64,000 nt of DNA from Sedimentisphaerales bacterium (GCA_963663965.2 CAXXFK010000038.1:51958-115957), one strand, 5' to 3'. Positions 13,701 to 36,295 are shown, numbered from the stretch's first letter. Numbers and translations are program-made. Notes: generated by a model not told the origin, from the sequence alone.

Positions 13701-13734
13701 ACATCATCATTCTGCAGGATCAAGATAACCAACA

Positions 13735-15570: not shown

Positions 15571-18434
15571 TTTTGTTCGAACCCATCTGGTTGATTTTAA
15601 TGATCCCGGCGCTGGTCTGTTTGTATTACTGGCGTATGCCCGGACGGTTGCTGGCAGTATTGCGAATTATCCTGGTTGCGTTGTTGATCCTGATTATGAC
15701 AGATCCGGCCTTGCGTCTGGGTGACCGCCGAGGCACTGTGGTGGTGATTGCCGACCGGAGCGCTTCCATGCCGCCGGATTCGCAAGAAAGCATGGTCGAA
15801 GCAATCCATATTGTCCAGGATGATATGCCAAACGGGAACTCGCTGGCAGTCGTTTCATTCGGTGAACAAGCGATCATTGACAAAACTCCGCAAAGTCAGC
15901 ATTTTGAGGAATTAATCGCCAATGTCAATCCTGACGGTTCCAATCTGGCTGATGCCCTGAACAAGGCCGTATCCCTGATCGACCGGGATGCTTCGGGCCG
16001 GATTCTGGTTTTCAGCGATGGACGCTGGACAGGCTCGTCGCCCAATGTGATCGCCTCGACCATGGCTTCGCGACACATCGCGATGGACTACCGGATATTT
16101 GAACGGCAACAAGGTCGAGATCTGGCGATAATGGACGTGGTCGCGCCACAGAAAGTTTCGCCCGGCCAGGCCTGGCTGATCAATGCCTGGATCAACTGTC
16201 CGGAACCGGTGGAAGTGAATTATGAACTCATCCGCGGGAATCTGATCATTGGTCGCGGTTCCCGACCACTGAAGTCAGGCCTTAACCGGCTGACCTTTCG
16301 TGACCGGGCCGGAGATTATGGCGTGTATGATTATCAATTGAAAATTGACGGCTACGCGGACGACCCGGTTGCCCAGAATAATTACGCCCGATTTCTGACC
16401 CAGATCGATGTCAACCGTCCCCTGCTGGCGCTCGGTCAGACCGGGCAGTCCGGACTGGTCAATCTATTGCAGAAAGACGGTATTCCGGTCGTGCGTCAGG
16501 AAACCGCCGAAATGGGATTTACCCTGGATGAACTGGCAGGCTATTCCGCCATCCTCATAGAAGATCTCGATGCCGGTGAAATAGGGCCGGGTGGCATGGA
16601 AAATATCGCCGCATGGGTTACGGACACCGGCGCCGGTGTCATCATGACCGGCGGCCCGCACAGTTACGGTCCGGGCGGGTATTTCCGTTCTCCGCTTGAG
16701 CCGATCATGCCGGTCAGCATGGAGCTGCGCCGCGAACATCGCAAGCTCAATATGGCCATTGTGGTCGTGCTGGATCGCTCCGGCAGTATGTCTGTATCGG
16801 CAGACGGAATCAAGACCAAGATGGATCTGGCGAACGCGGCTTCCGCCGAGGTGCTGGGGTTATTGTCGCCCGGCGATGAAATGGGCGTTATTGCCGTTGA
16901 CAGCGCGGCTCATATCATCGCCGACTGTAAACCGATCGGAGAAAATGTGGCCGGATTACGGCAGAAAATTCTTTCGATCGAGTCCACCGGAGGGGGAATT
17001 TTCGTTTATGAAGGCCTGATCCATGCCGCTTCGCTACTATCGGGCGCCGAATCAGAGACCAAACACATTATTCTATTTGCCGACGCGGCCGATTCCGAAG
17101 AACCGGGCGATTATAAAAATCTGATCGCGAAATGCCGACAGGCCGGAGTGACGGTCAGTGTGATCGGACTGGGCAGCGAAAAGGATCAGGACGCGGATTT
17201 GCTGCGCGATATCGCGTTGCGAGGCGAGGGGCGGTGTTTCTTTACGCAAAACGCGCTGGATTTACCCCGTCTGTTTGCCCAGGATACTTTTATGGTGGCC
17301 CGTAACAGTTTTATTAATGAACCGGTTGCGTTTGAGTTCAAGGCCGGCATTGACACCTTGATGGATATTGACACCGCCGGCGATCATCGTGTTGGCGGTT
17401 ATAATCTCTGTTACATCCGACCTGAAGCGACACTCTCCGCGGTCACGCTGGATGGATATGACGCGCCCATTCTTGCCCACTGGCAGGCCGGTATTGGCCG
17501 GGCGGCGGCATTCTGCGCCCAGGCGGATGGCAATTATGCCGGTCAACTGGCGCAATGGTCAGAGGCGGGGCGACTTTATAGTTCGCTGGCCCGCTGGGCG
17601 ATTGGCGATCCACAGGGTTTGGGACAGAACATTCTGGTCACCCAGGAAATTAACAAGGGTATCTGTCAGGTGCAGATTCACATTGATTCCCGGCTGGACC
17701 GGTTGCCGTTCAGTGAACCGCCGGTGGTTAATGTCCTGCGCGAACGGCCGGGCCGGGAGCCGGCCAGAGAGCAACTCCGGTCCACATTGATCAGCGCCGA
17801 TAAGTTTGCCGTAGATATTCCCTTAAGCAGTGACAAGACGGTGCTGGCTACTGTAGACGCCGGTGCCACCGGTAACGTGACGCTGCCGCCGGTCTGTTTA
17901 CCTTATTCTCCGGAATATCTCCCGGAAGACGCCGTTGGCGGTCAGGAGACATTGCAGCGTTTAAGTCGCATGACCGGAGGAGGGCGACTGGCTGACCTGA
18001 CTGGAATCTGGGATTCGTTGGAAGGCCGTCCGGTCTATGTCGATATGACTCCATGGCTGGCCATGGTGGCGATTGTGCTGTTTCTGCTGGAAATTCTTGA
18101 GCGTCGAACGGGTGTCCTGTCAATGCGGCCAGTCAAACGCTGGCTGGAAAGGAGAAAAGCCAAAGGTCTCCAACCCGCAGTGGCGCTGGAATCCACGGAG
18201 GAATCCACTGAAACCGAGAAGCGTGTTTTGCCGGTCAAGCCCAAAAGGGGATATTGGGACATCCTGTCAAAAGTGAAAATCAGACATCAATCATCTACCG
18301 AGCAAAAAGCTGAAAGTTCCCCCAGAAAAGATCAGCAACCCATCACAAAGCCGGTTGCGCCTCCCCAACCGACAGAAGCTGATTCAGGAGAAGGATTGTT
18401 GGATGCGTTAAATAAAATCAAACGCAAGCATTGA
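15567..18434 (+). CDS. Double-VWA membrane protein with glutamine-amidotransferase-like domain
   Basis: MIDAS motifs ADRSASM and LDRSGSM; GAGVIMTGGPHSYGPGGY...LEPIMPV; C-terminal TM and low-complexity tail. Start ATG 15567 overlaps previous stop. Confidence 0.88.
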   Translation: MILFEPIWLILMIPALVCLYYWRMPGRLLAVLRIILVALLILIMTDPALRLGDRRGTVVVIADRSASMPPDSQESMVEAIHIVQDDMPNGNSLAVVSFGEQAIIDKTPQSQHFEELIANVNPDGSNLADALNKAVSLIDRDASGRILVFSDGRWTGSSPNVIASTMASRHIAMDYRIFERQQGRDLAIMDVVAPQKVSPGQAWLINAWINCPEPVEVNYELIRGNLIIGRGSRPLKSGLNRLTFRDRAGDYGVYDYQLKIDGYADDPVAQNNYARFLTQIDVNRPLLALGQTGQSGLVNLLQKDGIPVVRQETAEMGFTLDELAGYSAILIEDLDAGEIGPGGMENIAAWVTDTGAGVIMTGGPHSYGPGGYFRSPLEPIMPVSMELRREHRKLNMAIVVVLDRSGSMSVSADGIKTKMDLANAASAEVLGLLSPGDEMGVIAVDSAAHIIADCKPIGENVAGLRQKILSIESTGGGIFVYEGLIHAASLLSGAESETKHIILFADAADSEEPGDYKNLIAKCRQAGVTVSVIGLGSEKDQDADLLRDIALRGEGRCFFTQNALDLPRLFAQDTFMVARNSFINEPVAFEFKAGIDTLMDIDTAGDHRVGGYNLCYIRPEATLSAVTLDGYDAPILAHWQAGIGRAAAFCAQADGNYAGQLAQWSEAGRLYSSLARWAIGDPQGLGQNILVTQEINKGICQVQIHIDSRLDRLPFSEPPVVNVLRERPGREPAREQLRSTLISADKFAVDIPLSSDKTVLATVDAGATGNVTLPPVCLPYSPEYLPEDAVGGQETLQRLSRMTGGGRLADLTGIWDSLEGRPVYVDMTPWLAMVAIVLFLLEILERRTGVLSMRPVKRWLERRKAKGLQPAVALESTEESTETEKRVLPVKPKRGYWDILSKVKIRHQSSTEQKAESSPRKDQQPITKPVAPPQPTEADSGEGLLDALNKIKRKH

Positions 18435-18666: not shown

Positions 18667-20832
18667 TTATGCCTGATTTTCCAGATCCATTTCGCCGATA
18701 AACCGGATCAGTTTCCGATAGAGGATCAATCCCAGGCTTTTGTTCCGGCCTTTCATGGCGACCATCCCGGTGGAACCATACTGGAAACCCTCTGGCACCG
18801 GTCCATCCAGATTGATAACAATTTTATGATAGGTGTCCAATACCCGGCCATTTAACGGATCTATGGGCAACGAACCCTGGCCGGCCGTCGTCAGGGTCAG
18901 ATCATGAACATAATCCACCGGCGCCGGCGATACGTATACCAGTGTTCCTGTCAGGGCCATCCGGGGATGCATCGCGCTACGAAAGACCATTTTTTTCCCA
19001 ACCATTTCCTGTACTTCGATCACATCCTTCTGATGTATCCATGCTTCACACTGCCAATTGCCATCGGCCAGGCGGGCCACTTCTTCACCCGGTTGGACAT
19101 AATACCCGGCGTTTTCCAATTGAGGGCAGTCAATCAAAGTCCCATCAGAATCCGTCCGGACATTCAGTTGTTCCAGATCCTTACTGCTGGTTTGCACCAG
19201 CGCGGTCAAACGGGTTACTATTTCCAGTTGCTGCGCGATTTCCACGGGATCGATGGTACTATCCGATTGATAAAGCGTGAGTAGCTTCCGCGCCTGAGTC
19301 AATCGATTCCGGGCATCCAGATACTTCTCATGCAAAAGATGATTATCCAGTTCCATAATGGGAGTCGCCGCTTCCACCCGGTCCCCCGTCTGGGCAAGAA
19401 CCCGTTTGACAAAACCGCTTTGACGCGTCCTTATGATTTGTTCATGTTCACGGATCAGACGCGCTTCGGCCCGGATCGGGCACGGAATCGGCATATAGAC
19501 AATGGCAGCAGGCACAATCATGAGGAACAGCAATGCCGCGATACTGGTACGCCAGCGATAGCGTGAAGCCTCCGGTGATTTTCTCAAATAAACCGTAATG
19601 CGAGTCAGTATCGAAAAGACCGTCATGGCAATGTACAACCCAGCCAGCGCCAAACCGAAAATAAGCATTTTACGAGCGATGACCCAGGATAACGCCAGGA
19701 CAATACTGACTTTATAGATTGAAGCAAAAATGCCGAAGGTTAACAGGAAAAACGCCATCCAACCACGGGGGCCCGGCTCATTACTTTTAATTCGCAAGAA
19801 TAACCGTTTGCAGACCCGAACCAGATAATCGCGTGACCGGCTTCTTAAGTTGGGCATTTCCAGCAGATCGCTCAGGATATAGTAGCCATCAAACCGCATC
19901 AATGGATTGACATTCATCAGGAGCGTGGTCACGCTGGCCAGGAAAAAGATATTGTACGCCAGCATCCGCGTGGAATAGGACTCGGAGGCACACCAGACCA
20001 GCAGTGCGATCATGGCGATCATGGATTCAAAATAAACGCCCCCCAATCCGACGATAATCCGTTTTATTTTGCTGTTAAATCCCCATGAACTGGTTACATC
20101 CACATAAGCGCAGGGGGTGAGCATAATCAGGTACACGCCCATGTCGGTGACCTGTCCGCCAAACAACTTGCAGGCGTAGCCGTGTCCCAATTCATGGATT
20201 GCCTTGAGTAAAATTAACGAAATCCATAAGATCGCCATATTCCCGGCGCTGAAGAGAGAACCGGAAAAGGTTTGGATCTCTCCAAAATGCCGAACCGTTA
20301 ATGCCGCGGATCCGCCCAACAGGATCAGGTATATAATAAAAAATACCCGAGTAAACAGCGGGCGCACCAGATGGGCGGTCTTTTCCAGGAAATTGTCCGG
20401 ATTCAACAAGGGGATCTGCAGAAAAAACAGACTAAACAATTTCTGCATCCGTTGCGCTTTCTGTCTTTGAATATGCCGCCGGTAAAGCGCCTTGTCGCTT
20501 GAAATAGGCAGTTGCAGAAAATTCAGCTGGTGGAGATTCAATACAAACTTGAAAAATGGCTCCTGATCTTCCGGATTCATCCACTCCTTTTCGACCAGGA
20601 TCTGAAATATTTCAGCCAGGGTAAGAGCCGGTGTCAGTTGACAAAATATCAGATATTCTTTTAAATTAAATTGATAGCATTGCAGCGACAGGGGATCGCG
20701 CACCACATAATAAGGTTCGCCATGATTGAGATGACGATGGATCTCCAGATCATTACGCAATCCGATGTGGGCCTTGCCCAGACGTTCATGCAAGCGGACC
20801 GTATTGTCTTGTGTTGTATCGGCTTGTACCAT
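18667..20832 (-). CDS. PqqD/RRE-like domain + M50 site-2 metalloprotease + HlyD/MFP adaptor fusion (copy 1)
   Basis: HELGH and NVNPLMRFDGYY zinc-ligand motifs within TM region; N-terminal YVVRDPLS...TLAEI; C-terminal lipoyl-like GFVKRVLAQTGDRV, coiled coil, GYYVQPGE. Confidence 0.88.
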   Translation of the reverse strand: MVQADTTQDNTVRLHERLGKAHIGLRNDLEIHRHLNHGEPYYVVRDPLSLQCYQFNLKEYLIFCQLTPALTLAEIFQILVEKEWMNPEDQEPFFKFVLNLHQLNFLQLPISSDKALYRRHIQRQKAQRMQKLFSLFFLQIPLLNPDNFLEKTAHLVRPLFTRVFFIIYLILLGGSAALTVRHFGEIQTFSGSLFSAGNMAILWISLILLKAIHELGHGYACKLFGGQVTDMGVYLIMLTPCAYVDVTSSWGFNSKIKRIIVGLGGVYFESMIAMIALLVWCASESYSTRMLAYNIFFLASVTTLLMNVNPLMRFDGYYILSDLLEMPNLRSRSRDYLVRVCKRLFLRIKSNEPGPRGWMAFFLLTFGIFASIYKVSIVLALSWVIARKMLIFGLALAGLYIAMTVFSILTRITVYLRKSPEASRYRWRTSIAALLFLMIVPAAIVYMPIPCPIRAEARLIREHEQIIRTRQSGFVKRVLAQTGDRVEAATPIMELDNHLLHEKYLDARNRLTQARKLLTLYQSDSTIDPVEIAQQLEIVTRLTALVQTSSKDLEQLNVRTDSDGTLIDCPQLENAGYYVQPGEEVARLADGNWQCEAWIHQKDVIEVQEMVGKKMVFRSAMHPRMALTGTLVYVSPAPVDYVHDLTLTTAGQGSLPIDPLNGRVLDTYHKIVINLDGPVPEGFQYGSTGMVAMKGRNKSLGLILYRKLIRFIGEMDLENQA

Positions 20833-20835
20833 GCG

Positions 20836-22719
20836 TCAATACCAAAAATGCATCTGGACATATTCGATGACTTTATGCAAGGCGATCCACCAGACGGGTC
20901 GTCGTCCGGCTTCGACCCGTGCCACCCCTTCCATGCCCGAGCGAATCCATTCCGGATTGAGATCGGATTCCGCCCGCACGATATAGATATTTTTTTTGTT
21001 AGACAGGGCGACCGTCGGTGATAAATGCCGGATGGTCAAACCGTAGGCTTCTTCAGGACGGGCACCGGCGGAAAACGTTCCCGACATATTCACCAGAATA
21101 TCATCCATTGCCTGTTCCGGAATATTCAATTCAATAAGCCACTGACCGGAGGGCGCCAGTTCGAACAAGGGGGCGCCCAGTGGCAATATCTGGCCGGTTT
21201 GACGGGCCGGATCGCCCTTGATTACCTGACCATCATAAGGGGCTTTAATGATCAGGCGTCCGATACGTTGATCGAGAATGTCAAGCCGGGATAGCAGATA
21301 ATCACTGTTGGCGCGCGCCAGTTCAATATCCGTGGTCGACCCATTCGCCACCGCTTTTTGCGTTTCAAGCCGGGCAATATTATACTCTGCCAGCAATTCA
21401 CTACGCTGCAATTGGAGCATGTCGTTGCTGAAACGGCACAGGATGTCGCCCTGTTTGACCCGGTCGCCCTCTTTGACCAACACTTCGTCAAGGCGCGCCT
21501 CGGCCGGGGTGGCAAAATGGCGAATCTGTGCAGGAACCGCGCGCGCCGGCACGGTAATCCGATAAGGCAAGCTGGCAAACAGGAACCAGTTGACTAACGC
21601 CAACAGCGCGACGATAACAAACACATTGACCAGGCCGCGAATGGTTTTCAGCTTGTCAATTTGGTGATATATGGAGCTGAAACCATGCATGAATAAAGAA
21701 CGATTGGCCCGGTCGACCAGGTGATAGGCGCCAATCAGCGGTTCGGTTATTTCACGAATTTTACTCAGTTCCGTTTCGTCAAAGGGCAGGTCGGCGCCAC
21801 GGCGCAAGCTCAATACCGCCTGACAACGGCCATCGGCTCCCCGAAGGGGAATCGAAGCGACGGCCGAGTTGCCAGTGGCGGTATGCCACTGCCGGTGTAA
21901 ACGCAGATCATTGGTCATGGTATACTTAGAACCGTGCCGTACATGATGAAACAGGCAAAATGCCTGCGTATCGAGACATTCGAGCATCGCCTCATTAATG
22001 CGGTCAATTTCTTTGCTGCCTTTTTTAATGGTATCGTGACCGGATATGGAAACGATGTTGACTTTGCGCTTATGAACAATCCCCAGCGAGATCTGATCGC
22101 ATCCAATGCGGTTACGCAAATTGTTGGTAATGGCGAAACCCAATTCTTTTCCTGAGGTATAGCCGGCCGCACGGGCAAGGGTTTGCGTGTCCTGAAGGAA
22201 CCCGGTCTGGTTTGGATTGTGATCGGTTAGACCGGAAATGTAGGACATAAACAGGGTATACGCTTCGAGAGCGATCGATTGCTGAATCGCCTGCTGACGG
22301 TCTTTGCAGTAAATCACCAGAACGATCGCCCCGATCATGGCGCTATCGTCGTTATAAACAGGGCAGGACAGGAACGCGATCGAATTGTCACTGGATTCCC
22401 GGTGAGCGTACATTTTCAGGCCGGAGGTCCTCCGGGACAGCGTTTCGTTGAGGAACTCCCGGGCCGATTTTTTCCAGAAATCCGGCGAGGTCGAACCACT
22501 GTGCCAGTATTCTTCCAATACATCCGAGGCACGTTGAATATATAACGTTGCGTAAGGGCAGGAAAATTGGCCAGCGATTATCCCCAAAGCCTGTTGATAA
22601 AGCGCCCTTCTGTTCTTTGTTTGACGGGCTTTATCAATTAATGCGCGATAGACCTGGTTGGGTGATTGTTGGCGGGCATTTCCCATTTTCTCCTGATTGT
22701 TTTCCAGCTTCTGCGTCAT
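20836..22719 (-). CDS. GAF-like domains + TM + HlyD/MFP periplasmic adaptor (copy 1)
   Basis: VASIPLRGADG...AVLSLRR...PFDETEL (GAF-like), one TM, VLVKEGDRVKQGD, IKAPYDGQV, IRSGMEGVARV. Confidence 0.85.
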   Translation of the reverse strand: MTQKLENNQEKMGNARQQSPNQVYRALIDKARQTKNRRALYQQALGIIAGQFSCPYATLYIQRASDVLEEYWHSGSTSPDFWKKSAREFLNETLSRRTSGLKMYAHRESSDNSIAFLSCPVYNDDSAMIGAIVLVIYCKDRQQAIQQSIALEAYTLFMSYISGLTDHNPNQTGFLQDTQTLARAAGYTSGKELGFAITNNLRNRIGCDQISLGIVHKRKVNIVSISGHDTIKKGSKEIDRINEAMLECLDTQAFCLFHHVRHGSKYTMTNDLRLHRQWHTATGNSAVASIPLRGADGRCQAVLSLRRGADLPFDETELSKIREITEPLIGAYHLVDRANRSLFMHGFSSIYHQIDKLKTIRGLVNVFVIVALLALVNWFLFASLPYRITVPARAVPAQIRHFATPAEARLDEVLVKEGDRVKQGDILCRFSNDMLQLQRSELLAEYNIARLETQKAVANGSTTDIELARANSDYLLSRLDILDQRIGRLIIKAPYDGQVIKGDPARQTGQILPLGAPLFELAPSGQWLIELNIPEQAMDDILVNMSGTFSAGARPEEAYGLTIRHLSPTVALSNKKNIYIVRAESDLNPEWIRSGMEGVARVEAGRRPVWWIALHKVIEYVQMHFWY

Positions 22720-22812
22720 GGATATTCATTTAAATTTTAAAGATGAATAATTATACAAATTACGTTTAGATGCCGGGAGACGCGAATGTCCCGATCGCCC
22801 AGTCGCCCCCAA

Positions 22813-23235
22813 TCAGATCAGGCTGATGTTTTCTTCCGATTCAATCGTTTCAGGGAGAATCACCCTGGTAAAAAATGAAAATCCGGTTTCGAAAGAATCC
22901 TCACTAATCAGCTTGCAGCGCATGCACCTGGCAAAAACCATGGGGATATCCACGACATCCCGGTCAAAATAAAGGCGGTAAATATCTCCAATTTTCAACG
23001 GAGCCGGGAACATGGCGCGGCAGCCGCCGGAAGAAATATCCCCGGAGATGCCCAGCATCTTCATATTGAGACATTCACTGGTATTGCCCGGTTGAAGAAT
23101 GATTTTTGCCTTAATCACCAGACGTTCTGAGGATCGTTGACGACGAATATTATCACTGGTCTGATCTTCAATTTCTTTTAAGATATCAAAGCCGTAATCT
23201 TCGTTCGTCAGAGAATAATTGATATCATCGTTCAT
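22813..23235 (-). CDS. PilZ-domain protein (c-di-GMP receptor candidate)
   Basis: RxxxR (QRSSER) and D/NxSxxG (DISSGG) motifs, C-terminal GFSF. Likely start ATG 23235. Confidence 0.85.
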   Translation of the reverse strand: MNDDINYSLTNEDYGFDILKEIEDQTSDNIRRQRSSERLVIKAKIILQPGNTSECLNMKMLGISGDISSGGCRAMFPAPLKIGDIYRLYFDRDVVDIPMVFARCMRCKLISEDSFETGFSFFTRVILPETIESEENISLI

Positions 23236-23338
23236 GGTATTTCTTAAATCAAAAAAAGCCAATAAATAACTGTAATAACAGTTAATTTATCGGCCTGGAG
23301 CAGCAGCGGATTAATGGAAAAAAGGAAAATATGTGATC

Positions 23339-26300
23339 TTATTTATCGGACTGGTTTATGACTCCAGCCATATTGCGAATCAACATCCACAGGCGTCCTA
23401 AAGCCCCGTTTTGCTGAGGGGATCCGGTGATTGGAGTTTCCGGTTCGTGGGTTGTTTCGGCATGGATTGGGGAATCGAACTCATCAGCCGAACCGTTATC
23501 GGTCGTGATCTGGTCGGTGATCCCAGATGGCAGTTCGGTGAACAGGTCGTCAAACATCTTGTCGCTGACAAATTCAAGCGGAACATCCAGGGCTTCGGCT
23601 ATCAGCGCATCAGTGGACCACTCAATTTCATTACTGTCAAAACCATTTTGCCCCGAATGTTCGTCATGATCGTTATTAAAACGCCTGGTATTCTGGATCG
23701 ATTCCTGCGTAATCATTTCGGAAGAATGTTCGTAAGGATGGTTCTGATAAATGATCGATTCGTTATCGACCGGATTCATGATTTTCAGAACCTGTTGATC
23801 GGTATCCTGTTTGGGCCCGGCATCCGCCACCTTAGAAATCTGCTGGTCCGCGGGAGTATTATCGGAAGAGATATTGGAGTCGGAGGGATTCTGATCATCC
23901 GAATTGGTTCGAATGACTTTGTGATGATCCGCTTCAACCTGGATGGATATGCTGTCAGAGACCACGGTCGAACCGTCGGACACCCGAAGCTCGAGAGTCA
24001 CTTCCGCATCGGAATGGATATTGGATGGGATAATTACCGGATCGGGCGAATCTGGATTAAGAATTTTCACCGCAGGGCCCGAGGTTTGCACCCAGGTGTA
24101 GGTCAGGTTATCCCCATCGATATCATCCGCCTGGCCATTAAGAGTGATTGGCTGTTTTTCACGGGCAACAGTATCGTCTCCGGCGCTGACGACAGGAGCA
24201 TCATTGACAGCATTTACCTGAAGCGTAACCGTCGCAGTATGGAAGCCACCCTGGCCGTCTGATACCTGATAGGTAAAACTGTCCTGACCGTTGTAGTTTG
24301 GTGAGGGAGAATAAGAGAAAGTGCCATCCTGGTTATATATTACCGATCCATGTTCAGGTTGGGTAAAATCAGCAATTGACAACAAGTCGCCATCGATATC
24401 CGTATCGTTATCCAGAACCCGGGAGGTCGTGATCGTCTGGTCCTCATTGGTTTCGAAATGATCATTCGTTGTCTGAGGGGTATCGTTCACACCCTGGGTA
24501 TTTAACTCGACAGTCGCAGTACTTTTCGCGCCATCGCCATCCATCACGGTATAGGTAAAATTGTCCTGACCATGGAAATTGGCGTTGGGAGTATAGGTGA
24601 AGGTGCCATCCTGATTATAAACAACATGGCCATGCGCAGGCTGACTGTAATCACCTACGTTTAAAGTATCGCCATCCGCATCGGTATCATTTACCAGTAC
24701 ATTGGCCGTTCGAATCGGTTGATCTTCCAGTCCGCCATATTGTTCACCAAAAGCTTGGGGGGCATCGTTTACAGCGTTTACTTTGACGTTCACAGTTACG
24801 GTATCGGTCCCCCCGTTGCCATCGGAGACGGTATAGGTAAAACTGTCGTGTCCGTTGAAATTGGCGTTGGGCGTATAGGTGAAGGCGCCATCGCCATTAT
24901 GAACAACCGAACCGTTGGCCGCCTGACTGTAATCGGTGATCGTCAGAGAATCGCCATCCGCGTCGATATCGTTGGCGAGGACATTACCCGTCGTGAAGGG
25001 TGTGTCTTCCGAGGTGGCGAAGGAATCACCGGCCGCCTGGGGCGCGTCGTTAGCGGCGCCGACGTTCACGTTCACAGTTACGGTATCGGTCCCCCCGTTG
25101 CCATCGGAGACGGTATAGGTAAAACTGTCGTGTCCGTTGAAATTAGCGTTGGGCGTATAGGTGAAGGCGCCATCGCCATTATGAACAACCGAGCCGTTGG
25201 CCGCCTGACTGTAATCGGTGATCGTCAGAGAATCGCCATCCGCGTCGATATCGTTGGCGAGGACATTACCCGTCGTGAAGGGTGTGTCTTCCGAGGTGGC
25301 GAAGGAATCACCGGCCGCCTGGGGCGCGTCGTTAGCGGCGCCGACGTTCACGTTCACAGTTACGGTATCGGTCCCCCCGTTGCCATCGGAGACGGTATAA
25401 GTAAAACTGTCGTGTCCACTGAAATTGGCGCTTGGGGTATAAGTGAAGGTGCCATTGCCGTTATTCGCGACCGAGCCATGAGCGCCTTGACTGAAATCAC
25501 TGATCGTTAAGATGTCGCCATCGATATCGGTATCATTGGCCAGGACATTCCCTGTTGTCACGGGTGTATCTTCAGCAGTAGCGATCTGTTCGCCGATACC
25601 CATTGGACTGTCATTAGTGCTTTGCACGGTTATTTCAATAGTAGCCGAACTTATGCCTCCATTACCATCTGAAACTTCATAAGTAAAACTATCCGGACCG
25701 TGATAATGTTGATCGGGGACATAAGTGAAGGTCCCATCGTTGTTGTGAGTTATCGAGCCATGTTGGGGTTGAGTAAAATCAGTGATGGTCAGAGTGTCAC
25801 CATCGCTGTCAATGTCGTTATTCAGAACATTTCCGGTATTGAGTGTGCTGTCTTCATTAACCTGATAAGTATCAATATTCGCGACGGGTGCGTTGTTTAC
25901 TGGAGCCGGAGCCACATCGATTACAATTTCATTAATGTCATTCGTGAGGTTTTCGACGCTATTAAGTGTATCGGATCCCAGATTGCCATCGTCGCTATCC
26001 GTATCAGCGATCGTTCCAAAACCATCGTTCATTTGAATGTTATAACCATTCATCGTCCCTGCCAGAACGGCGTAATCATTCCCATCGCCACCATAAAGCT
26101 GGTCGTTGCCTGAATCAGCGATAAATATATCGTCGCCGCCCATGCCGTAGAGTTTGTCATTGCCGGAGCCGCCGATGATGACATCGTTGCCGCCGGTGCC
26201 GTAGATGGTATCATGGCCGCTGCCGCCATCAATGGCGGCGACGCCTGAGAAGGTGGCATTGGAGAAGTCGAGGGTATTGTTGGCCCAGTTGCCTTTGAGG

Positions 26301-28606
26301 GTGATATCATTGCCGGAGAACTGCTCGACTGTGGCATCGTCCGTATGGGTGGTCATGATGACTTCGGTGCCGGTCCCGACGACGGTATCATAACCATCGC
26401 CGCCATAAAAAGTGTCTTCGCCATCCCCATTGTTATAGATGAAGGTGTCGTCGCCGCCCATGCCGTAGAGTTTGTCATTGCCGGAGCCGCCGATGATGAC
26501 ATCGTTGCCGCCGGTGCCGTAGATGGTATCATGGCCGCTGCCGCCATCAATGGCGGCGACGCCTGAGAAGGTGGCATTGGAGAAGTCGAGGGTATTGTTG
26601 GCCCAGTTGCCTTTGAGGGTGATATCATTGCCGGAGAACTGCTCGACTGTAGCATCGCCGGTGTGGGTGGTCATGATGACTTCGGTGCCGGTCCCGACGA
26701 CGGTATCATAACCATCGCCGCCATAAAAAGTGTCTTCGCCATCCCCATTGTTATAGATGAAGGTGTCATCGCCGCCCATGCCGTAGAGTTTGTCATTGCC
26801 GGAGCCGCCGATGATGACATCGTTGCCGCCGGTGCCGTAGATGGTATCATGGCCGCTGCCGCCATCAATGGCGGCGACGCCTGAGAAGGTGGCATTGGAG
26901 AAGTCGAGGGTATTGTTGGCCCAGTTGCCTTTGAGGGTGATATTGTCGCCGGAGAACTGCTCGACCGTGGCATCGTCCGTATGGGTGGTCATGATGACTT
27001 CGGTGCCGGTCCCGACGACGGTATCATAACCATCGCCGCCATAAAAAGTGTCTTCGCCATCCCCATTGTTATAGATGAAGGTGTCGTCGCCGCCCATGCC
27101 GTAGAGTTTGTCATTGCCGGAGCCGCCGATGATGACATCGTTGCCGCCGGTGCCGTAGATGGTATCATGGCCGCTGCCGCCATCAATGGCGGCGACGCCT
27201 GAGAAGGTGGCATTGGAGAAGTCGAGGGTATTGTTGGCCCAGTTGCCTTTGAGGGTGATATTGTCGCCGGAGAACTGCTCGACCGTGGCATCGTCCGTAT
27301 GGGTGGTCATGATGACTTCGGTGCCGGTCCCGACGACGGTATCATAACCATCGCCGCCATAAAAAGTGTCTTCGCCATCCCCATTGTTATAGATGAAGGT
27401 GTCGTCGCCGCCCATGCCGTAGAGTTTGTCATTGCCGGAGCCGCCGATGATGACATCGTTGCCGCCGGTGCCGTAGATGGTATCATGGCCGCTGCCGCCA
27501 TCAATGGCGGCGACGCCTGAGAAGGTGGCATTGGAGAAGTCGAGGGTATTGTTGGCCCAGTTGCCTTTGAGGGTGATATCATTGCCGGAGAACTGCTCGA
27601 CTGTAGCATCGTCCGTATGGGTGGTCATGATGACTTCGGTGCCGGTCCCGACGACGGTATCATAACCATCGCCGCCATAAAAAGTGTCTTCGCCATCCCC
27701 ATTGTTATAGATGAAGGTGTCGTCGCCGCCCATGCCGTAGAGTTTGTCATTGCCGGAGCCGCCGATGATGACATCGTTGCCGCCGGTGCCGTAGATGGTA
27801 TCATGGCCGCTGCCGCCATCAATGGCGGCGACGCCTGAGAAGGTGGCATTAGAGAAGTCGAGGGTGTTATTGGCCCAGTTGCCCTTGAGGGTGATATTGT
27901 CGCCGGAGAATTGTTCCACTGTGGCATCATCCGTATGGGTGGTCATGATGACTTCGGTGCCGGTCCCGACGACGGTATCATAACCATCGCCGCCATAAAA
28001 AGTGTCTTCGCCATCCCCATTGTTATAGATGAAGGTGTCGTCACCACTACCCCCGTATAACTTGTCATTTCCGGTTCCGCCATAAATTAAATCATTTCCA
28101 TCACCCCCATCGATGGTATCGTGACCGCTGCCACCGATAATTACATCATCGCCGCCACCGCCACTTAAATTATTATTAGCCCAGGTTCCGATGATGATAT
28201 CATTACTATCTGAACCATTTTCATTTGAGAGTATGGTCCATGACCCGTCCGAAAAATTGATGGTATTGGCGTCATTATTAATAACCAGCGATTGATCATC
28301 GAATGAAAGAGTCAGATGGCCCTGTTGATCGACCGAATAATCGAAAATGTCATGATTGCCTTCAATCGTATATGAATTGGTAGCTTGATCGAAGACCGCA
28401 TGGTCCAGATCACCAAATACATCCGGTTGGTTAACCCCCATGTCTTCCAGTATATCGGCATCCAAAACCGGTAAGTCCGGCTGGGCATCCGGGGCGCCAT
28501 CATCAACATCCACCCAGGTGGCTGAAAGCATGATTCTGGGTTCAAGCGCTGTGACCTGGATATTATTCAGTTTATCAGAATTCTTCTTTTTCATGACAGT
28601 TTTCAT
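23339..28606 (-). CDS. LEPR-xLL family giant secreted protein / adhesin with RTX Ca-binding repeats and cadherin-like Ig domains
   Basis: N-terminal ALEPRIMLSA; many GGxGxD nonapeptides; six NDAP...ED...GNVLAND...DSFTYTVSDG Ig-like units; a PKD-like domain (YTWVQTSGP); acidic tail. No hydrophobic Sec signal. Confidence 0.92.
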   Translation of the reverse strand: MKTVMKKKNSDKLNNIQVTALEPRIMLSATWVDVDDGAPDAQPDLPVLDADILEDMGVNQPDVFGDLDHAVFDQATNSYTIEGNHDIFDYSVDQQGHLTLSFDDQSLVINNDANTINFSDGSWTILSNENGSDSNDIIIGTWANNNLSGGGGDDVIIGGSGHDTIDGGDGNDLIYGGTGNDKLYGGSGDDTFIYNNGDGEDTFYGGDGYDTVVGTGTEVIMTTHTDDATVEQFSGDNITLKGNWANNTLDFSNATFSGVAAIDGGSGHDTIYGTGGNDVIIGGSGNDKLYGMGGDDTFIYNNGDGEDTFYGGDGYDTVVGTGTEVIMTTHTDDATVEQFSGNDITLKGNWANNTLDFSNATFSGVAAIDGGSGHDTIYGTGGNDVIIGGSGNDKLYGMGGDDTFIYNNGDGEDTFYGGDGYDTVVGTGTEVIMTTHTDDATVEQFSGDNITLKGNWANNTLDFSNATFSGVAAIDGGSGHDTIYGTGGNDVIIGGSGNDKLYGMGGDDTFIYNNGDGEDTFYGGDGYDTVVGTGTEVIMTTHTDDATVEQFSGDNITLKGNWANNTLDFSNATFSGVAAIDGGSGHDTIYGTGGNDVIIGGSGNDKLYGMGGDDTFIYNNGDGEDTFYGGDGYDTVVGTGTEVIMTTHTGDATVEQFSGNDITLKGNWANNTLDFSNATFSGVAAIDGGSGHDTIYGTGGNDVIIGGSGNDKLYGMGGDDTFIYNNGDGEDTFYGGDGYDTVVGTGTEVIMTTHTDDATVEQFSGNDITLKGNWANNTLDFSNATFSGVAAIDGGSGHDTIYGTGGNDVIIGGSGNDKLYGMGGDDIFIADSGNDQLYGGDGNDYAVLAGTMNGYNIQMNDGFGTIADTDSDDGNLGSDTLNSVENLTNDINEIVIDVAPAPVNNAPVANIDTYQVNEDSTLNTGNVLNNDIDSDGDTLTITDFTQPQHGSITHNNDGTFTYVPDQHYHGPDSFTYEVSDGNGGISSATIEITVQSTNDSPMGIGEQIATAEDTPVTTGNVLANDTDIDGDILTISDFSQGAHGSVANNGNGTFTYTPSANFSGHDSFTYTVSDGNGGTDTVTVNVNVGAANDAPQAAGDSFATSEDTPFTTGNVLANDIDADGDSLTITDYSQAANGSVVHNGDGAFTYTPNANFNGHDSFTYTVSDGNGGTDTVTVNVNVGAANDAPQAAGDSFATSEDTPFTTGNVLANDIDADGDSLTITDYSQAANGSVVHNGDGAFTYTPNANFNGHDSFTYTVSDGNGGTDTVTVNVKVNAVNDAPQAFGEQYGGLEDQPIRTANVLVNDTDADGDTLNVGDYSQPAHGHVVYNQDGTFTYTPNANFHGQDNFTYTVMDGDGAKSTATVELNTQGVNDTPQTTNDHFETNEDQTITTSRVLDNDTDIDGDLLSIADFTQPEHGSVIYNQDGTFSYSPSPNYNGQDSFTYQVSDGQGGFHTATVTLQVNAVNDAPVVSAGDDTVAREKQPITLNGQADDIDGDNLTYTWVQTSGPAVKILNPDSPDPVIIPSNIHSDAEVTLELRVSDGSTVVSDSISIQVEADHHKVIRTNSDDQNPSDSNISSDNTPADQQISKVADAGPKQDTDQQVLKIMNPVDNESIIYQNHPYEHSSEMITQESIQNTRRFNNDHDEHSGQNGFDSNEIEWSTDALIAEALDVPLEFVSDKMFDDLFTELPSGITDQITTDNGSADEFDSPIHAETTHEPETPITGSPQQNGALGRLWMLIRNMAGVINQSDK
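24786..25430. repeat. 282-bp intragenic tandem repeat (94 aa), about 2.3 copies
   Basis: acgttcacagttacggtatcgg recurs at 24786, 25068 and 25350; near-identical DNA. Confidence 0.93.
26130..28042. repeat. 318-bp intragenic tandem repeat (106 aa), 6 copies
   Basis: Shadow ORFs recur at 26205, 26523, 26841, 27159, 27477, 27795 (period 318); units nearly identical. Confidence 0.97.
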
Positions 28607-29635: not shown

Positions 29636-30499
29636 ATGGATACTGATAAGAAACATCCCGAGGAAGTGGGCGATTTTGAAGATCTGCATCATGAGGGCGA
29701 GATACCGGAATTTGTGAAGAAATACGGCGGCCGGATACTGGTCTTTGTGGCGGTGTTTCTAGTGGCGGTATCGGCGCTGCAGTTGATTAAATATAATATA
29801 GGCGAGTCGCAGCGGGAGAAGAAAGAGCGGCTGGCAAGTCTGGTCGTGGAGCAGAATAAGATGGCGGTGGAAGCAGTAAATCCGGATCCGGAAGCCAAGG
29901 ATTCGGCGCCAAAGAAGGCCTATAAATCGGCAGAACTGGTGGCGAATCTGGAGAAGTTGAGCAAGCAGGCCGCAGATTCGAATGTGGGCAAGATGGCGAC
30001 GCTGCAAGCGGCGGAAGCGATTCGGTCTGACATTATCTTTGCCGATCAGTTCTTCAGCCAGGAAGAGAAACAGGCGATCAGCCAGCAAGCCAACGCAATT
30101 TATGAAACGCTGTTAAAGAAGTATCCGAACGATCCGGCGATTGTTGGTCCGGCGCTGATCGCTCAGGGACTGCTGGCTGAAGAGCTGAAGGAATGGGACA
30201 AGGCAGGGCAGTTCTACAATCAGGCGATCGAAAAGGCGAGTGGTGTACTGGCCGGTACGGTATTTGTGCAGCAGGCGCGCGACCGGTTGATGGGAATGGA
30301 TAAGCGGAAAGAGACGATCGAGTTTGTGGACGCTCCGGAACCAGAGCCGGTAGTTGAACCGGAAGCCGGGGCGGTTACGGTACCGACGGTGGAAAATATG
30401 ATGGGGGCGGCAACCAAACCTGAGGGCGCTGAGTCTGAAGCCGCCGGGCCGGAGATTGAGATAGTACCGAATTCGGAAAATCCCGGCGAAACGAAATAA
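29636..30499 (+). CDS. Single-TM periplasmic TPR-like protein (YfgM-like architecture)
   Basis: FVKKYG followed by a TM helix; TPR-like YETLLKKYPND...ALIAQGLLAEELKEWDKAGQFYNQA; Pro/Glu tail. Confidence 0.7.
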   Translation: MDTDKKHPEEVGDFEDLHHEGEIPEFVKKYGGRILVFVAVFLVAVSALQLIKYNIGESQREKKERLASLVVEQNKMAVEAVNPDPEAKDSAPKKAYKSAELVANLEKLSKQAADSNVGKMATLQAAEAIRSDIIFADQFFSQEEKQAISQQANAIYETLLKKYPNDPAIVGPALIAQGLLAEELKEWDKAGQFYNQAIEKASGVLAGTVFVQQARDRLMGMDKRKETIEFVDAPEPEPVVEPEAGAVTVPTVENMMGAATKPEGAESEAAGPEIEIVPNSENPGETK

Positions 30500-30524
30500 G
30501 CCGTCTTTTTAGTAAGAAATGAAC

Positions 30525-30562
30525 AGGGCAAGCCTCCTATCCGCTTGCCCTTTTGTTATTTT
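30525..30562 (+). terminator. Intrinsic terminator
   Basis: agggcaagc-ctcctatcc-gcttgccct followed by tttgttattttt. Confidence 0.7.
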
Positions 30563-32073: not shown

Positions 32074-34002
32074 TTGCCCGATACACAAACCACTCAGAAA
32101 ATTTCTGAAATATTGAATCGAATCGCTCAATTGCCAGGAATGCAGCTGGAACCGCAACAGTTTTTTGCCGAGTTTCTGCAATTATCGATTGTAGTTACCG
32201 GCAGTCAGGGCGGAGCGATCTGGGTTTTGCAACCGCAACAAACGCCTCAATGTTACTGTCATTTGAAGCTGGAATTATGCGGGATACAACAACCGGAACA
32301 ACAAAAGATCGTTGTCGAAGCGATTGACAGTGCTGTCAAAGAAGAGAAGCTCGTTATCCTGCCGGCGAATACGGGCAATCCGGAGGAATCGGGGGGGAAT
32401 CTGGCGAACTGTCCGTTGTTCTTGAAGCCGTTGAAAGCGGCCGGGAAAGTGGCGATGGTCTTGCAGATTATTGGTACGCCCCAGATGAGGACAGAGGAGT
32501 TCCGGATGATGGCCGGATTGCTGGAGCGTTCGGGTGAGGCGGCGGAAACCTATCTGGCACATCGGCGGGCCGTGGTATTGGAAGATGATCGCAAGGCGCT
32601 GACGCGATTGCTGCAATTCAGTGAGACGGTTCACACCTCGATGGACCCGGAAAAGGTGATTTATCAGATTGCCAATGGAGGGCGTGATACGATTGGCTGC
32701 AGCCGGGTTGTGGTGTGGGTGGATCCGAAGGTTAAGCGTGGATTGCGGGCGGTGAGCGGTGTGGATAAAGCCGACCGGCGTGCGGTTCTGATGCAGGCGA
32801 TCGAGAAATTGAGCAAGCATTGTCTGTTTATTAAAAAGCCGATTATTTCAACGCGTCAGCAACTGGTGGAGATGCTGGAGGATGATGAATTAAAAGAGTT
32901 GCTGATGGAATATTATAACGTCAGTCAACTGGATCAGATATTTGTGCAGCCGATCAAGGTGGAACAGCGCTACCTGGGCACGCTGGTGGCGGAGGGGTTT
33001 GAAGATGTGGGGACGGCCAGCCTGGCGGGCTTGATCTCGAATGTGGCGAACCACAGCGGGATCGCACTGGATAACGCGCTGCAACTGGCCTCGTCGCCGA
33101 TGTTCAAGCCGCTGGCGAAAATGAAATCCATTCGAACGGAACCGAAACGGAAGCGTAAATGGCTATTCGCTGCGATCATTGTGATTGCGGCCCTGACGGC
33201 GGCCTGTTATGTGCCCTGGCCGGTAACGATTAAAGTCGCGTGTGAATTGTCGCCTTCGACCTTGCGGACGGTCCAATGCGAGCTGGACCAGGTGAAGGTA
33301 AGCCAGATTGTGACTGATTCGGGGAATGTGACTCAAGGACAGTTGATCGCTCAATTGGATGATCTGGATTTTGTGGCGGAGAAAAAGGCTCTGGAGCTGG
33401 CCCTGGACCAGGAACGGTTGAAACGGGACCAGTCGATTCCAGGCAGCAGCGAACAGAAGACCAGCGAGCTGCAAATCAAACGGCTGGAAAACAGCCTGGA
33501 TCTGGTGAGTTCTCAGATCGAGCGGTGCCAGGTGCGTTCGCCAATTGAGGGAGTGATCCTGACCGCCGACCTGGAGCGGCTGGAGGGCCAGGTGATTGGC
33601 AAAGGCGAGACCATCTGTGAGGTGGCGAGCTTCGATCAGTGGCAATTGCGGCTGGATGTGCCGCAGGAAGAAGTGGACTGGCTGCGCAAACGTCTGGCGG
33701 GTGGGGGCGATGGAACAACGGGGGAAGAAGCGCCGGTTTATTATTTTCTGGAGGCGTTTCCGCAGTTCAAGCTGCAAGCCAGTATTAATAATGTCGATCA
33801 GATTGGCCAGATGCCCAAATTGAAACAGGATGGCAATGTGTATGAGGTGAGAATCGGCATTCCCGCAGAGCGTCTGGTTGAAATTCGAGAGGGTTTACGA
33901 AATGGCATGGTGGGGCGCTCGAAAATTGAAACGGTGGAAAAGCCCTTTGGATTTGTTCTGCTCCGCAAGGTGATCCGGTTCTTCCGGGTGACTTTTTTCT
34001 AG
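32074..34002 (+). CDS. GAF-like domains + TM + HlyD/MFP periplasmic adaptor (copy 2)
   Basis: GAF-like region (AVSGVDKADRRA), one TM, VRSPIEGVI, LRNGMVGRSKI...LLRKVIRF; same layout as 20836..22719. Confidence 0.85.
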   Translation: MPDTQTTQKISEILNRIAQLPGMQLEPQQFFAEFLQLSIVVTGSQGGAIWVLQPQQTPQCYCHLKLELCGIQQPEQQKIVVEAIDSAVKEEKLVILPANTGNPEESGGNLANCPLFLKPLKAAGKVAMVLQIIGTPQMRTEEFRMMAGLLERSGEAAETYLAHRRAVVLEDDRKALTRLLQFSETVHTSMDPEKVIYQIANGGRDTIGCSRVVVWVDPKVKRGLRAVSGVDKADRRAVLMQAIEKLSKHCLFIKKPIISTRQQLVEMLEDDELKELLMEYYNVSQLDQIFVQPIKVEQRYLGTLVAEGFEDVGTASLAGLISNVANHSGIALDNALQLASSPMFKPLAKMKSIRTEPKRKRKWLFAAIIVIAALTAACYVPWPVTIKVACELSPSTLRTVQCELDQVKVSQIVTDSGNVTQGQLIAQLDDLDFVAEKKALELALDQERLKRDQSIPGSSEQKTSELQIKRLENSLDLVSSQIERCQVRSPIEGVILTADLERLEGQVIGKGETICEVASFDQWQLRLDVPQEEVDWLRKRLAGGGDGTTGEEAPVYYFLEAFPQFKLQASINNVDQIGQMPKLKQDGNVYEVRIGIPAERLVEIREGLRNGMVGRSKIETVEKPFGFVLLRKVIRFFRVTFF

Positions 34003-34081: not shown

Positions 34082-36295
34082 ATGACAGACGAGATACAAA
34101 AACAGCCCCAAGATTTGGAATTGAATGTCGATTGGCAGGAGGATACCTCGCGGATCCTGCCAAAGAGCCGCAAAGATGTGGAGATTACCGAGCAGGTTTT
34201 TTACGGCAAGCCCTGTTTTGTGCTGAAGGATCCGACGACCCTGAAGTATTTTCGGTTGCGTCCCCCGGAATATCTGATCTATCAGTTGCTCGACGGGGAA
34301 AATACCCTGGATGACATTCTGAGAGCGCTGGCAGAGCGGTTTCCGGCGGACCAGTTTGAGCCGCAGACGGTAATGAATTTTCTGGTGATGCTGCGCGGGG
34401 CCAACCTGCTGATTGTGCCGGGTAAGCAAAACACCGAATATCTGCTGAAGCGTAAGAAAGTGACGACACGGGGATTCTGGACGAAACTGCGTACGGAGTT
34501 TCTGTTTTACAAGATTCCGTTATTGGATCCGGACAAGTTGCTGATCAGGCTGGATAAGACGATCGGCCGGTTTCTTTTCACGCGTGGGATGGCGATCCTG
34601 GTGTTTATACTGCTAGTGGGTGCTATTTATCTGTTTATTGGCAATATAGACAACCTGTCCCGCCGCATGCCGTTGCTCAGCTGGATTAATTTGATGTACC
34701 TGGTGCCGAGTTTTCTGATCGTCAAGTTGATCCATGAATTCGGGCATGGCCTGACGGCGCGTCATTTTGGCACGGAAGTGCATGAGATGGGCATCTTGTT
34801 TCTGGTATTCACGCCCTGTCCCTATTGCGATGTATCGGACTGCTGGATGTTATCGGATAAAGGCAAGCGGATGTGGATTACGGCGGCGGGGATCGCGGTG
34901 GAAATTGTGCTGGCGGCGATGGCGTGTTATATCTGGTCGCTGACCAAGCCGGGCACGGTGATCAATCAATTTGCCCTGAATGTCATGTTGATGGCCAGTA
35001 TTAATACCTTGTTGTTCAATGGGAACCCGCTGTTGCGCTACGATGGGTATTATTTCATGATGGACATGATCGAGATCCCCAATCTTAAGCAGAAGAGCAG
35101 CAGCTATTTATGGTATCTGTTTCAACGGTATGTCCTGGGAGAAGACAACGCGTCAGAGCCGATGGACGCTCACGGCCGCGAAAACGGATTGGTTTTTTAC
35201 GCGATTTGCAGCACAGTTTATCGCTGGTTTATCATGGTGGCGATCATTACCATGATCTGGAAGTTCCTGGATCCTTATGGACTGGGCGCTCTGGCGGCAG
35301 TTATGGCGTTGGCGAGCATTTATTCGGCTTTGATTCAGCCGGTATTCAGATTTTTCAAATATCTCTATACGCATCGACATGCCATCCACTTGCGGATTGC
35401 CAGCTTTTCGTTGCTGGTAGTCATAATCTTGGGTACCGTAGTCTGGATCATGATGATCAAAGTGGAGCAATCCGTCGACGTGCAATGCGTATTGCGACCG
35501 ACTGACATGCAGGTGTTGTATGTCACCCAGCCGGGATTGATCGATTTGTCTGGAGGTGAACTGGTACGGGATGGTCAGGAGGTAACCGAAGGGCAGGTGT
35601 TACTCACCTTGCGCGATCCCGAACTGGAAAGTCAGTATAATGATATTAACTATGAGATTGAACAGTTGAAGGCGGAACGTGAACAGGCCCGGTCCAATAT
35701 GAATCAGGAGGTGGAAGCCGTCGCGTTATCCAGCAAGATCGAATCATTAGAAACGAAGAAAGAACGAATTGCCGAATCGCTGGAGCGGTTGAAGATTATC
35801 GCCAATGCCAATGGGCGATTACAATTGCGGCTGCCACAACCACTGGAGCAGATGGATGGCATGTACCTGGCCTTGCAGCGGGAAGTGATGGCGATTTATC
35901 AATACGGTGACTACGAAGCCATCGCGGCAGTCAATCATAGAGACATTGAACGGATTCAACCGGAGCAGAAAGTACGGATCAAATTATGGGCGATGGATGA
36001 TGAAGAATTGGAAACACAGGTGAAAATCAAACCGCCTACTCATGTGTTACGGCTGTCAAGTCCGGCGTTATCCACTGCATTTCATGGGGAAACACCAACC
36101 TTGCCTTCCAGCGATCCCAAAGATGCTTTGGAACCGGCAGAGAACACCTATGAATTGATATTCCCGCTGCAACAGGATGCCCGATTACGTGATGGTCTGG
36201 GTGGTCGCGCCAAGATCTTGTTTGATGATAAAACCCTGTTTCAGACTTTCTACTGGTGGCTTATTCAGACATTACGTCAGGATATCCGGTTATAA
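34082..36295 (+). CDS. PqqD/RRE-like domain + M50 site-2 metalloprotease + MFP fusion (copy 2)
   Basis: FVLKDPTTLKYFRL...LLDGENTLDDI; HEFGH; FNGNPLLRYDGYY; VRDGQEVTEGQVL and coiled coil. Confidence 0.88.
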   Translation: MTDEIQKQPQDLELNVDWQEDTSRILPKSRKDVEITEQVFYGKPCFVLKDPTTLKYFRLRPPEYLIYQLLDGENTLDDILRALAERFPADQFEPQTVMNFLVMLRGANLLIVPGKQNTEYLLKRKKVTTRGFWTKLRTEFLFYKIPLLDPDKLLIRLDKTIGRFLFTRGMAILVFILLVGAIYLFIGNIDNLSRRMPLLSWINLMYLVPSFLIVKLIHEFGHGLTARHFGTEVHEMGILFLVFTPCPYCDVSDCWMLSDKGKRMWITAAGIAVEIVLAAMACYIWSLTKPGTVINQFALNVMLMASINTLLFNGNPLLRYDGYYFMMDMIEIPNLKQKSSSYLWYLFQRYVLGEDNASEPMDAHGRENGLVFYAICSTVYRWFIMVAIITMIWKFLDPYGLGALAAVMALASIYSALIQPVFRFFKYLYTHRHAIHLRIASFSLLVVIILGTVVWIMMIKVEQSVDVQCVLRPTDMQVLYVTQPGLIDLSGGELVRDGQEVTEGQVLLTLRDPELESQYNDINYEIEQLKAEREQARSNMNQEVEAVALSSKIESLETKKERIAESLERLKIIANANGRLQLRLPQPLEQMDGMYLALQREVMAIYQYGDYEAIAAVNHRDIERIQPEQKVRIKLWAMDDEELETQVKIKPPTHVLRLSSPALSTAFHGETPTLPSSDPKDALEPAENTYELIFPLQQDARLRDGLGGRAKILFDDKTLFQTFYWWLIQTLRQDIRL

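Follow-up and report, generated by a model that had tools for sequence, protein, structure and literature searches.

The closest described relative of the locus reported here is a module found by Kamneva, Poudel and Ward (2015; PMC4452313), in which genes for M50-HlyD fusions, GAF-HlyD fusions and HlyD adjoin a wing-less secondary SecA. That study, computational only, found no ABC transporter and proposed the M50 protein as the inner-membrane pore and SecA as the ATPase. We analyzed a four-gene cassette in a 64,000-nucleotide stretch, hereafter the window, of the genome of a Sedimentisphaerales bacterium (GCA_963663965.2, CAXXFK010000038.1:51958-115957). The cassette encodes a large adhesin-type protein (the cargo), a stand-alone PilZ protein, a membrane fusion protein (MFP) adaptor of the GAF-MFP type and a fusion of an M50 protease with an MFP (M50-MFP). 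In our best reading it belongs to clade A, the branch of the M50-MFP/GAF-MFP module that is marked by PilZ, and serves the adjoining adhesin-type protein; on balance, we favor a dedicated, leader-recognizing, PilZ-controlled export or processing machine without an ATPase gene of its own. Computational analysis established the domain anatomy, the clade structure, the gene linkage, the conserved cargo ends and the lack of a second SecA in many genomes.

Like the module of Kamneva et al, the window cassette combines M50-HlyD and GAF-HlyD fusions, usually accompanied in the published module by a third HlyD with or without an outer-membrane efflux protein (OEP), and has no ABC transporter. It differs in that the published module has a linked secondary SecA, whereas the window protein belongs to a separate M50-MFP clade with PilZ instead and often no secondary SecA anywhere in the genome. 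The cluster table of that paper contains M50, HlyD, GAF, SapC and a hypothetical protein, with no cargo cluster; its main text names no PilZ, PqqD, leader or RTX, and a search for these terms in its first 12 supplements returned nothing. The idea that an M50 fusion takes the place of the ABC pore, put forward by the original prediction for this DNA, is already found in PMC4452313.

Other systems share parts of this design. The daptide protein MpaP/DapP (bioRxiv 10.1101/2023.03.08.531785) fuses a RiPP recognition element (RRE; RiPP, a peptide made on the ribosome and modified after translation) to a site-2 protease and is described as removing a leader with the motif ELExMEAP. The window cassette likewise combines an RRE-like domain, a site-2 protease and a leader with a conserved L-E-containing motif, and differs in its MFP fusion, in adhesin-type substrates of 1000–7000 aa as opposed to a short RiPP precursor, and in having no recurrent tailoring enzymes. 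Type I secretion (HlyB-HlyD-TolC) has MFP adaptors, a TolC-type channel, as expected here too, and RTX cargo without a Sec signal; it employs an ABC transporter, whereas the window cassette has N-proximal RTX repeats, an N-terminal leader and a protease-MFP fusion. In type I RTX substrates the repeats precede a C-terminal signal and Ca2+-dependent folding acts as a ratchet (PMC6891781). The LapA-LapD-LapG system of Pseudomonas fluorescens (PMC3032545) also places a large adhesin, a c-di-GMP (cyclic di-GMP) receptor and a protease in one circuit, an analogy only, between unrelated parts: LapG is periplasmic, whereas here the receptor is PilZ, the protease an intramembrane M50 and the candidate tether C-terminal. 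Finally, the LEPR-XLL proteins Cag_663/665 (bioRxiv 10.64898/2026.03.19.712371) carry the same N-terminal motif family as the window cargo (NF012209); that preprint ascribes export to SapC/TolC/HlyD or autotransport, and its main text mentions M50 zero times. The available text of PMC3482391, PMC8567305 and bioRxiv 10.1101/2023.11.21.568195 does not describe this cassette, and we found no description of the PilZ variant or of a leader-to-M50 link in a literature search that largely did not cover subscription journals. We regard the locus as a new variant: the M50-MFP/GAF-MFP module is known, and its PilZ-linked branch without a secondary SecA and with a two-ended cargo signature was not found described.

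The four co-oriented minus-strand open reading frames (ORFs) that had been predicted were confirmed, in the order cargo, PilZ, GAF-TM-MFP (TM, transmembrane segment) and M50-MFP, with intergenic gaps of 76, 93 and 3 bp. ORF and Pfam analysis of the window found no ABC or OEP gene in the operon, and the window genome, which is 94.6% complete, held a single ABC_membrane match that scored best as MsbA (446 bits) and stayed below the HlyB cut-off (343 vs 726 bits), in agreement with the proposed absence of a HlyB-type transporter. A promoter and terminator scan performed no better than chance (18 vs 18.3).

To place the cassette, we fetched loci for the 80 top-ranking of 571 genome matches. Of these, 37 had PilZ without secondary SecA, 32 had secondary SecA without PilZ, 11 had neither gene and none had both. 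A quick midpoint-rooted tree of 79 loci and the two window M50-MFP proteins (L056 was left out because of its short match) split into two clades with a Shimodaira–Hasegawa-like approximate likelihood ratio (SH-aLRT) of 100. Clade A, which includes the cassette protein, comprises 44 loci, 37 with PilZ and none with a linked secondary SecA, at least 3 kb of downstream sequence being available in 32; clade B comprises 35 loci, 32 with a secondary SecA and none with PilZ. Seven clade-A loci lack PilZ, and five of these stop at a contig edge. None of the 44 clade-A records bears a title from outside Planctomycetota. We also sampled 200 other genomes of Planctomycetota with a completeness of at least 90%. 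The clade PilZ occurred in 10 of them, and the identical 10 carried the top M50-MFP scores (at least 668 bits; next 611), while any M50-MFP match was seen in 56, with five candidates scored for each genome. By its coordinates, one of these 10 (G163) is identical to a training genome (G018). In six of the 10 a lone M50-MFP goes with one SecA; in the other four, extra M50-MFP copies go with a second SecA. Clustering of 53 clade-A loci recovered M50, GAF-MFP, PilZ (42 loci), a third, stand-alone MFP (32) and cargo as recurrent members, the remaining clusters being opposite-frame shadows, a sensor kinase in six of the loci and one ABC ATPase family in four; no ATPase family recurred in more than 4 of the 53. 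The machine originally proposed, with two MFPs, is partly supported and is incomplete as a general scheme, given the third MFP in 32 clade-A loci and the secondary SecA of clade B.

The question of a motor was addressed genome-wide. Among the 44 clade-A genomes, 23 have one M50-MFP, and none of the 23 contained a second SecA_DEAD gene (up to 25 candidates scored per genome), two being uninformative because they yielded no SecA above cut-off at all; in contrast, 19 of the 21 with extra M50-MFP copies have a second SecA. With a profile built from 17 secondary SecAs, 29 of 31 PilZ-branch genomes showed one SecA locus and two showed none, whereas controls gave a second SecA in 4/4. The single-contig genomes G005, G029 and G165 are among those with one locus. 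The single copy is presumably the housekeeping SecA. In the window genome (G000), a wing-less secondary SecA lies at a contig start (C27:1-1602, L001), unlinked as far as visible. The equivalent gene stands alone in the same-family genome G115 (L106), so a secondary SecA may be common to several cassettes.

These data bear on the alternative that the cassette is a satellite module, a cargo-specific adaptor and regulator relying on a remote motor, which would be the secondary SecA in the window genome and either housekeeping SecA or an MsbA-like ABC transporter in others, and thus not functionally motor-free. Besides a secondary SecA not linked to the cassette, the window genome and G115 each contain two further M50-MFPs, a canonical SecA is present in every informative genome, ABC_membrane proteins occur in the five genomes checked, and the wing/scaffold domain of planctomycete SecA is rearranged (PMC4452313). 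Set against this are the single SecA locus in 29/31 genomes, including the three single-contig ones, and the finding that no HlyD passed the type I threshold in 5/5 genomes, which leave this alternative unlikely. Its housekeeping-SecA version is compatible with these data and overlaps with the energy step of the mechanism that we favor.

The cargo gave Pfam matches to RTX, cadherin-like and PKD domains. As predicted, it has no Sec signal (the best 12-residue hydropathy within the first 40 aa is 0.89, with no h-region) and carries LEPRIMLS at residues 21–28. The NCBIfam model NF012209 (LEPR-XLL) scored above cut-off on the first 60 aa (20.9 bits vs 17; residues 20–29) and was not listed at E ≤ 0.01 in a full-length scan. 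No cysteine occurs past the leader. The leaders of 12 cargoes share E-x-R-x-x-x-S-x-T, usually followed by W, and a profile of this clade leader matched 10/10 cassette genomes of the 200-genome sample and 1/190 others, that one at the lowest score. The proposed co-occurrence of LEPR-xLL with M50-MFP was borne out in the same sample: NF012209 at E ≤ 0.002 matched in 23 of 56 genomes with M50-MFP vs 1 of 144 without, the exception (G241) staying negative on re-check. The model is insensitive here: 33 of the 56 escaped it, among them five clade-A genomes whose leader is clear. In G002, G029 and G036 the sole LEPR-XLL match above cut-off is the cargo adjoining the cassette; in G005 the match lies 34 kb away and bears both cargo motifs, and G030 has none above cut-off.

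The other end of the cargo is conserved as well. RTX matches were found in 13 of 15 complete cargoes, in 11 of these 13 confined to the first half, and none lay past 58% of the length in any of the 15. The final RTX match of the window cargo is at residue 791 of 1735 after the leader, and not directly before a C-terminal signal as in type I substrates. An acidic stretch (14–26% Asp+Glu) follows the last folded domain in 14/15 cargoes, and the last 196 aa of the window cargo gave no usable Atlas match. Near the end lies the motif L-W-x-L-x-R-x-x-G, for which we built a position-specific scoring matrix (PSSM) from 22 sequences with a threshold of 9 bits. It recovered 21/22 sequences in leave-one-out and 10/13 held-out cargoes vs 0/10 clade-B neighbors and 0/11 other LEPR-type proteins of the genome; among 3066 ORFs of at least 300 aa, the top two were the window cargo and a paralog on contig C21, and two others passed. 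The motif proved insensitive in a genome-wide search (2/10 clade-A genomes, 0/190 others). The segment is amphipathic, with a mean moment of 0.39. A transmembrane sorting signal was ruled out, the best 19-residue hydropathy ranging from -0.07 to 1.2 over the 22 sequences. This C-terminal helix is an added feature of the PilZ branch, most simply a tether or stop signal, and a second candidate target of the M50 protease.

A conserved helix near the cargo end also invites the opposite polarity: as in a Lap-like scheme, the helix would be the export signal and exit first, the RRE-held leader would act as the tether, and PilZ-controlled M50 cleavage would free the adhesin. Type I signals are indeed C-terminal and uncleaved (PMC6891781), and LapA is freed when its N-terminus is cut under c-di-GMP control (PMC3032545). 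Yet the RTX repeats adjoin the leader and are distant from the helix, and the helix is missing from all 21 clade-B neighbors and other LEPR-type proteins, whereas LEPR leaders follow M50-MFP, which argues for the leader as the shared signal. We therefore consider reverse polarity doubtful.

Related proteins occur elsewhere. An unlinked cargo paralog of the window genome (C21:105209-114788, L003) shares the cargo's leader and C-terminal motif and is split between two reading frames (2232 and 938 aa), through either a real break or an assembly error. Eleven more proteins of 570–5941 aa with LE-x-R-x-LL-type N-termini, on contigs C11, C13, C18, C33, C37, C40 and C41, lack the C-terminal helix motif. 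At another locus (L090, 5598-18899) the cargo ORF extends 689 aa upstream of the leader, in frame with another protein that we take to resemble urocanate hydratase; the extension is probably due to a lost stop or an assembly error.

The M50-MFP protein matched Pfam Peptidase_M50 (PF02163) and HlyD_3, which identifies it as an M50-HlyD fusion. The zinc ligands, predicted to be intact, proved so: HELGH occupies residues 213–217 and NPLMRFDG residues 309–316, and H213, E214, H217, N307, P310, D315 and G316 were invariant among 111 aligned sequences (of 120 listed matches; at E ≤ 1e-20 there were 976 among 8000 scored candidates). Together with the predicted transmembrane segments, these ligands define a multi-TM site-2 protease domain. 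The closest NCBIfam model was the daptide protease NF041824 (E 5e-48; 164 bits, below the cut-off of 300). An AlphaFold2 model of the full protein had a mean predicted local distance difference test (pLDDT) score of 91.8; its C-terminal part matched MacA/MexA/AcrA, and its membrane part matched RseP (Z 9.5) and the archaeal M. jannaschii S2P (Z 9.0), values that are modest for helical bundles. Folded alone, the N-domain (pLDDT 87) adopts a winged-helix fold of three strands and three helices, whose best structural matches were lasso B1-leader complexes (Z 10.1, root-mean-square deviation 2.6 over 84 aligned residues, and Z 9.9) and PqqD (Z 8.3); the top five Foldseek matches were all RRE/PqqD (E 0.02–0.09). 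In the predicted model, this domain is RRE-like in fold. A profile of it against PDB sequences gave no relevant match, and co-folding with the leader scored 0.00 vs a mark of 0.32; as controls were not folded, we used this result neither way. The PqqD/RRE domain originally proposed for this N-terminus was thus recovered as a fold and not as a sequence family.

The window PilZ protein scored above the Pfam cut-off, as did 29/30 family members. PilZ domains that bind c-di-GMP carry the motifs RxxxR and D/NxSxxG. Over 30 sequences, these motifs keep their first Arg without exception and their second Arg, Asp, Ser and Gly in at least 90% of cases, which makes c-di-GMP binding very likely, judged from these motifs. 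GGDEF genes were present in 5/5 genomes checked.

The adaptor was assigned to HlyD_3 by Pfam, in keeping with the predicted MFP. The GAF part of the label gave no Pfam match in the window copy, whereas GAF_2 matched in 32/34 members of the adaptor family and Atlas GAF clusters scored 0.94; GAF and PilZ profiles against PDB sequences produced weak or spurious matches only. As for the outer membrane, the TolC predicted to be encoded elsewhere may lie among 22 OEP matches in the window genome outside the operon, and TolC genes are present in many clade-B loci. One TolC-type gene (C26:58688-60379, L120) gave the best match to OEP profiles from cassette-adjacent genes (245 bits, next 188), and its product is, by sequence, a candidate outer-membrane partner. 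At the start of contig C18 (C18:1-3350, L002), a third MFP, a broken paralog of the stand-alone HlyD, accompanies the third M50-MFP of the genome, with several frameshifts.

That the cassette contains no translocator, and is instead a signaling and maturation complex with PilZ/GAF input in which intramembrane proteolysis trims or frees cargo exported otherwise while the MFPs merely touch TolC, fits the established processing and signaling roles of M50 site-2 proteases, the fold matches to RseP and M. jannaschii S2P, the lack of a motor linked to the cassette and the absence of any M50 protease known to act as a protein-conducting pore, but sits poorly with a cargo lacking a Sec signal, with no type I system found above cut-off, with two to three MFPs retained alongside the protease and with TolC genes in many clade-B loci, and is improbable.

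In the export mechanism that we favor, the RRE-like domain of M50-MFP would, judging from its modeled fold, probably recognize and bind the LEPR-xLL leader in the cytoplasm. We give roughly even odds to the adhesin being threaded N-terminus first through the M50 membrane domain, the MFPs and an unlinked TolC-type channel, and rate as equally balanced the removal of the leader by the protease, by analogy with the daptide RRE-site-2 protease; alternatively, the protease might cut the C-terminal helix. More tentatively, the acidic linker could span the channel, with the C-terminal helix anchoring the adhesin to the inner membrane up to its release. PilZ would likely gate export or release in response to c-di-GMP. 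No dedicated NTPase would take part, and the energy might come from Ca2+-driven folding of early-emerging RTX/cadherin domains, from housekeeping SecA or from the proton-motive force. The full combination is rather unlikely to hold, namely a distinct class of one-step secretion without a dedicated NTPase in which the site-2 protease, with its RRE, serves as leader receptor and inner-membrane channel at once, the chain exits N-terminus first on a ratchet of Ca2+-driven folding of the N-proximal RTX/cadherin domains, the C-terminal amphipathic helix keeps it tethered through the channel and the same protease releases it upon sensing of a c-di-GMP change by PilZ.

Several observations weigh against the favored reading. 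The evidence on every cassette member is computational, and the genome counts are not independent, because most genomes are metagenome assemblies and mutually related. Concerning the motor, the cassette could borrow the unlinked secondary SecA of the window genome, and the five genomes checked among those without one each have two or three ABC_membrane proteins of unassigned type. PilZ went undetected in two clade-A loci (L044 and L051), neither of which is cut by a contig end. Non-RRE methyltransferase winged-helix domains matched the N-domain nearly as well (Z 9.1 and 8.6), and Pfam PqqD matched 0/45 members of the window M50-MFP family. The third MFP is absent from the window cassette, and no ortholog was found in the assembly. 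A system-specific TolC was not established, as matches at E ≤ 1e-35 to the C26 candidate occurred in 35/200 genomes, many without M50-MFP. On the cargo side, three of 13 held-out cargoes (L032, L115 and L045) fell under the C-terminal motif threshold, and an RTX ratchet cannot be universal, because among the 15 complete cargoes two lack RTX matches altogether and two more show a single one.

Table 1. Positions of the cassette features and of the paralogous pair, counted from the first letter of the window.
Feature	Position	Strand	Basis or motif positions
Cargo, 1755-aa RTX/cadherin-like adhesin-type protein	23339..28606	-	ORF call and Pfam
N-terminal leader motif LEPR-xLL with clade-specific S-A/G-T-W-V-D extension, residues 21-33	28508..28546	-	NF012209 and clade leader profile
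RTX region in N-terminal half of cargo, mostly six 106-aa (318-bp) repeats; bounds approximate	26057..28165	-	Pfam
Seven stretches of Tandem-95/cadherin-like Ig repeats with a 94-aa period, and PKD-like domain; bounds approximate	23936..25897	-	
Acidic linker, ~175 aa, without Pfam match or usable Atlas match	23408..23929	-	
Conserved short amphipathic C-terminal segment, L-W-x-L-x-R-x-x-G	23366..23407	-	
Stand-alone PilZ protein	22813..23262	-	RxxxR 23122-23136; DxSxxG 23023-23040
Adaptor: GAF region, single TM (residues 366-384), MFP	20836..22719	-	
RRE-like domain (~21-108), M50 site-2 protease, MFP (~450-698)	18667..20832	-	HExxH 20182-20196; NPxxxxDG 19885-19908
Paralogous GAF-MFP, ~22% identical over C-terminal half; separate cassette	32074..34002	+	
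Paralogous PqqD-M50-MFP, 28% identical, PqqD above cut-off	34082..36295	+	

Beyond the cassette, the plus strand of the window (29636-38793) encodes a TPR protein, an RluA-type pseudouridine synthase, a second GAF-MFP/PqqD-M50-MFP pair and an S41 protease; the TPR-RluA-GAF-M50 order is also conserved in G115 (L108). This second pair (32074-36295) has no adjoining cargo or SecA and may serve other LEPR-type proteins of the genome; in the tree, its M50-MFP falls with the secondary-SecA clade on a long branch. The original prediction had missed this pair, as well as PilZ as a branch marker and the C-terminal helix. Convergent with the cassette, the region 6014-18434 (+) encodes a MoxR AAA protein, an ABC ATPase, membrane proteins, DUF58, BatA/vWA and a large vWA protein. 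Further along, a separate efflux-type cluster at 51234-57000 (-) comprises a MacB/FtsX permease, an MFP and a fragmentary OEP match (C38:108124-108423), and the housekeeping SecA (58286-62086, +; 1266 aa) shows insertions and a split wing/scaffold match, as PMC4452313 reports for Planctomycetes.

How LEPR-XLL proteins, some of them among the largest of bacteria, are exported is unsettled; the 2026 preprint cited above (bioRxiv 10.64898/2026.03.19.712371) still reports two of them as having no known signal. The PilZ branch amounts to a natural subtraction experiment, with a single cassette and a single cargo in single-contig genomes that have no secondary SecA, and it offers two short cargo motifs for mutation. 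Were the one-step, NTPase-free reading true, the cassette would be a mirror image of type I secretion and the Lap system combined. With four or five genes, the branch makes it possible to test whether a tripartite exporter can have an M50 protease as its inner-membrane component, what the power source of that exporter is and whether c-di-GMP gates it directly.

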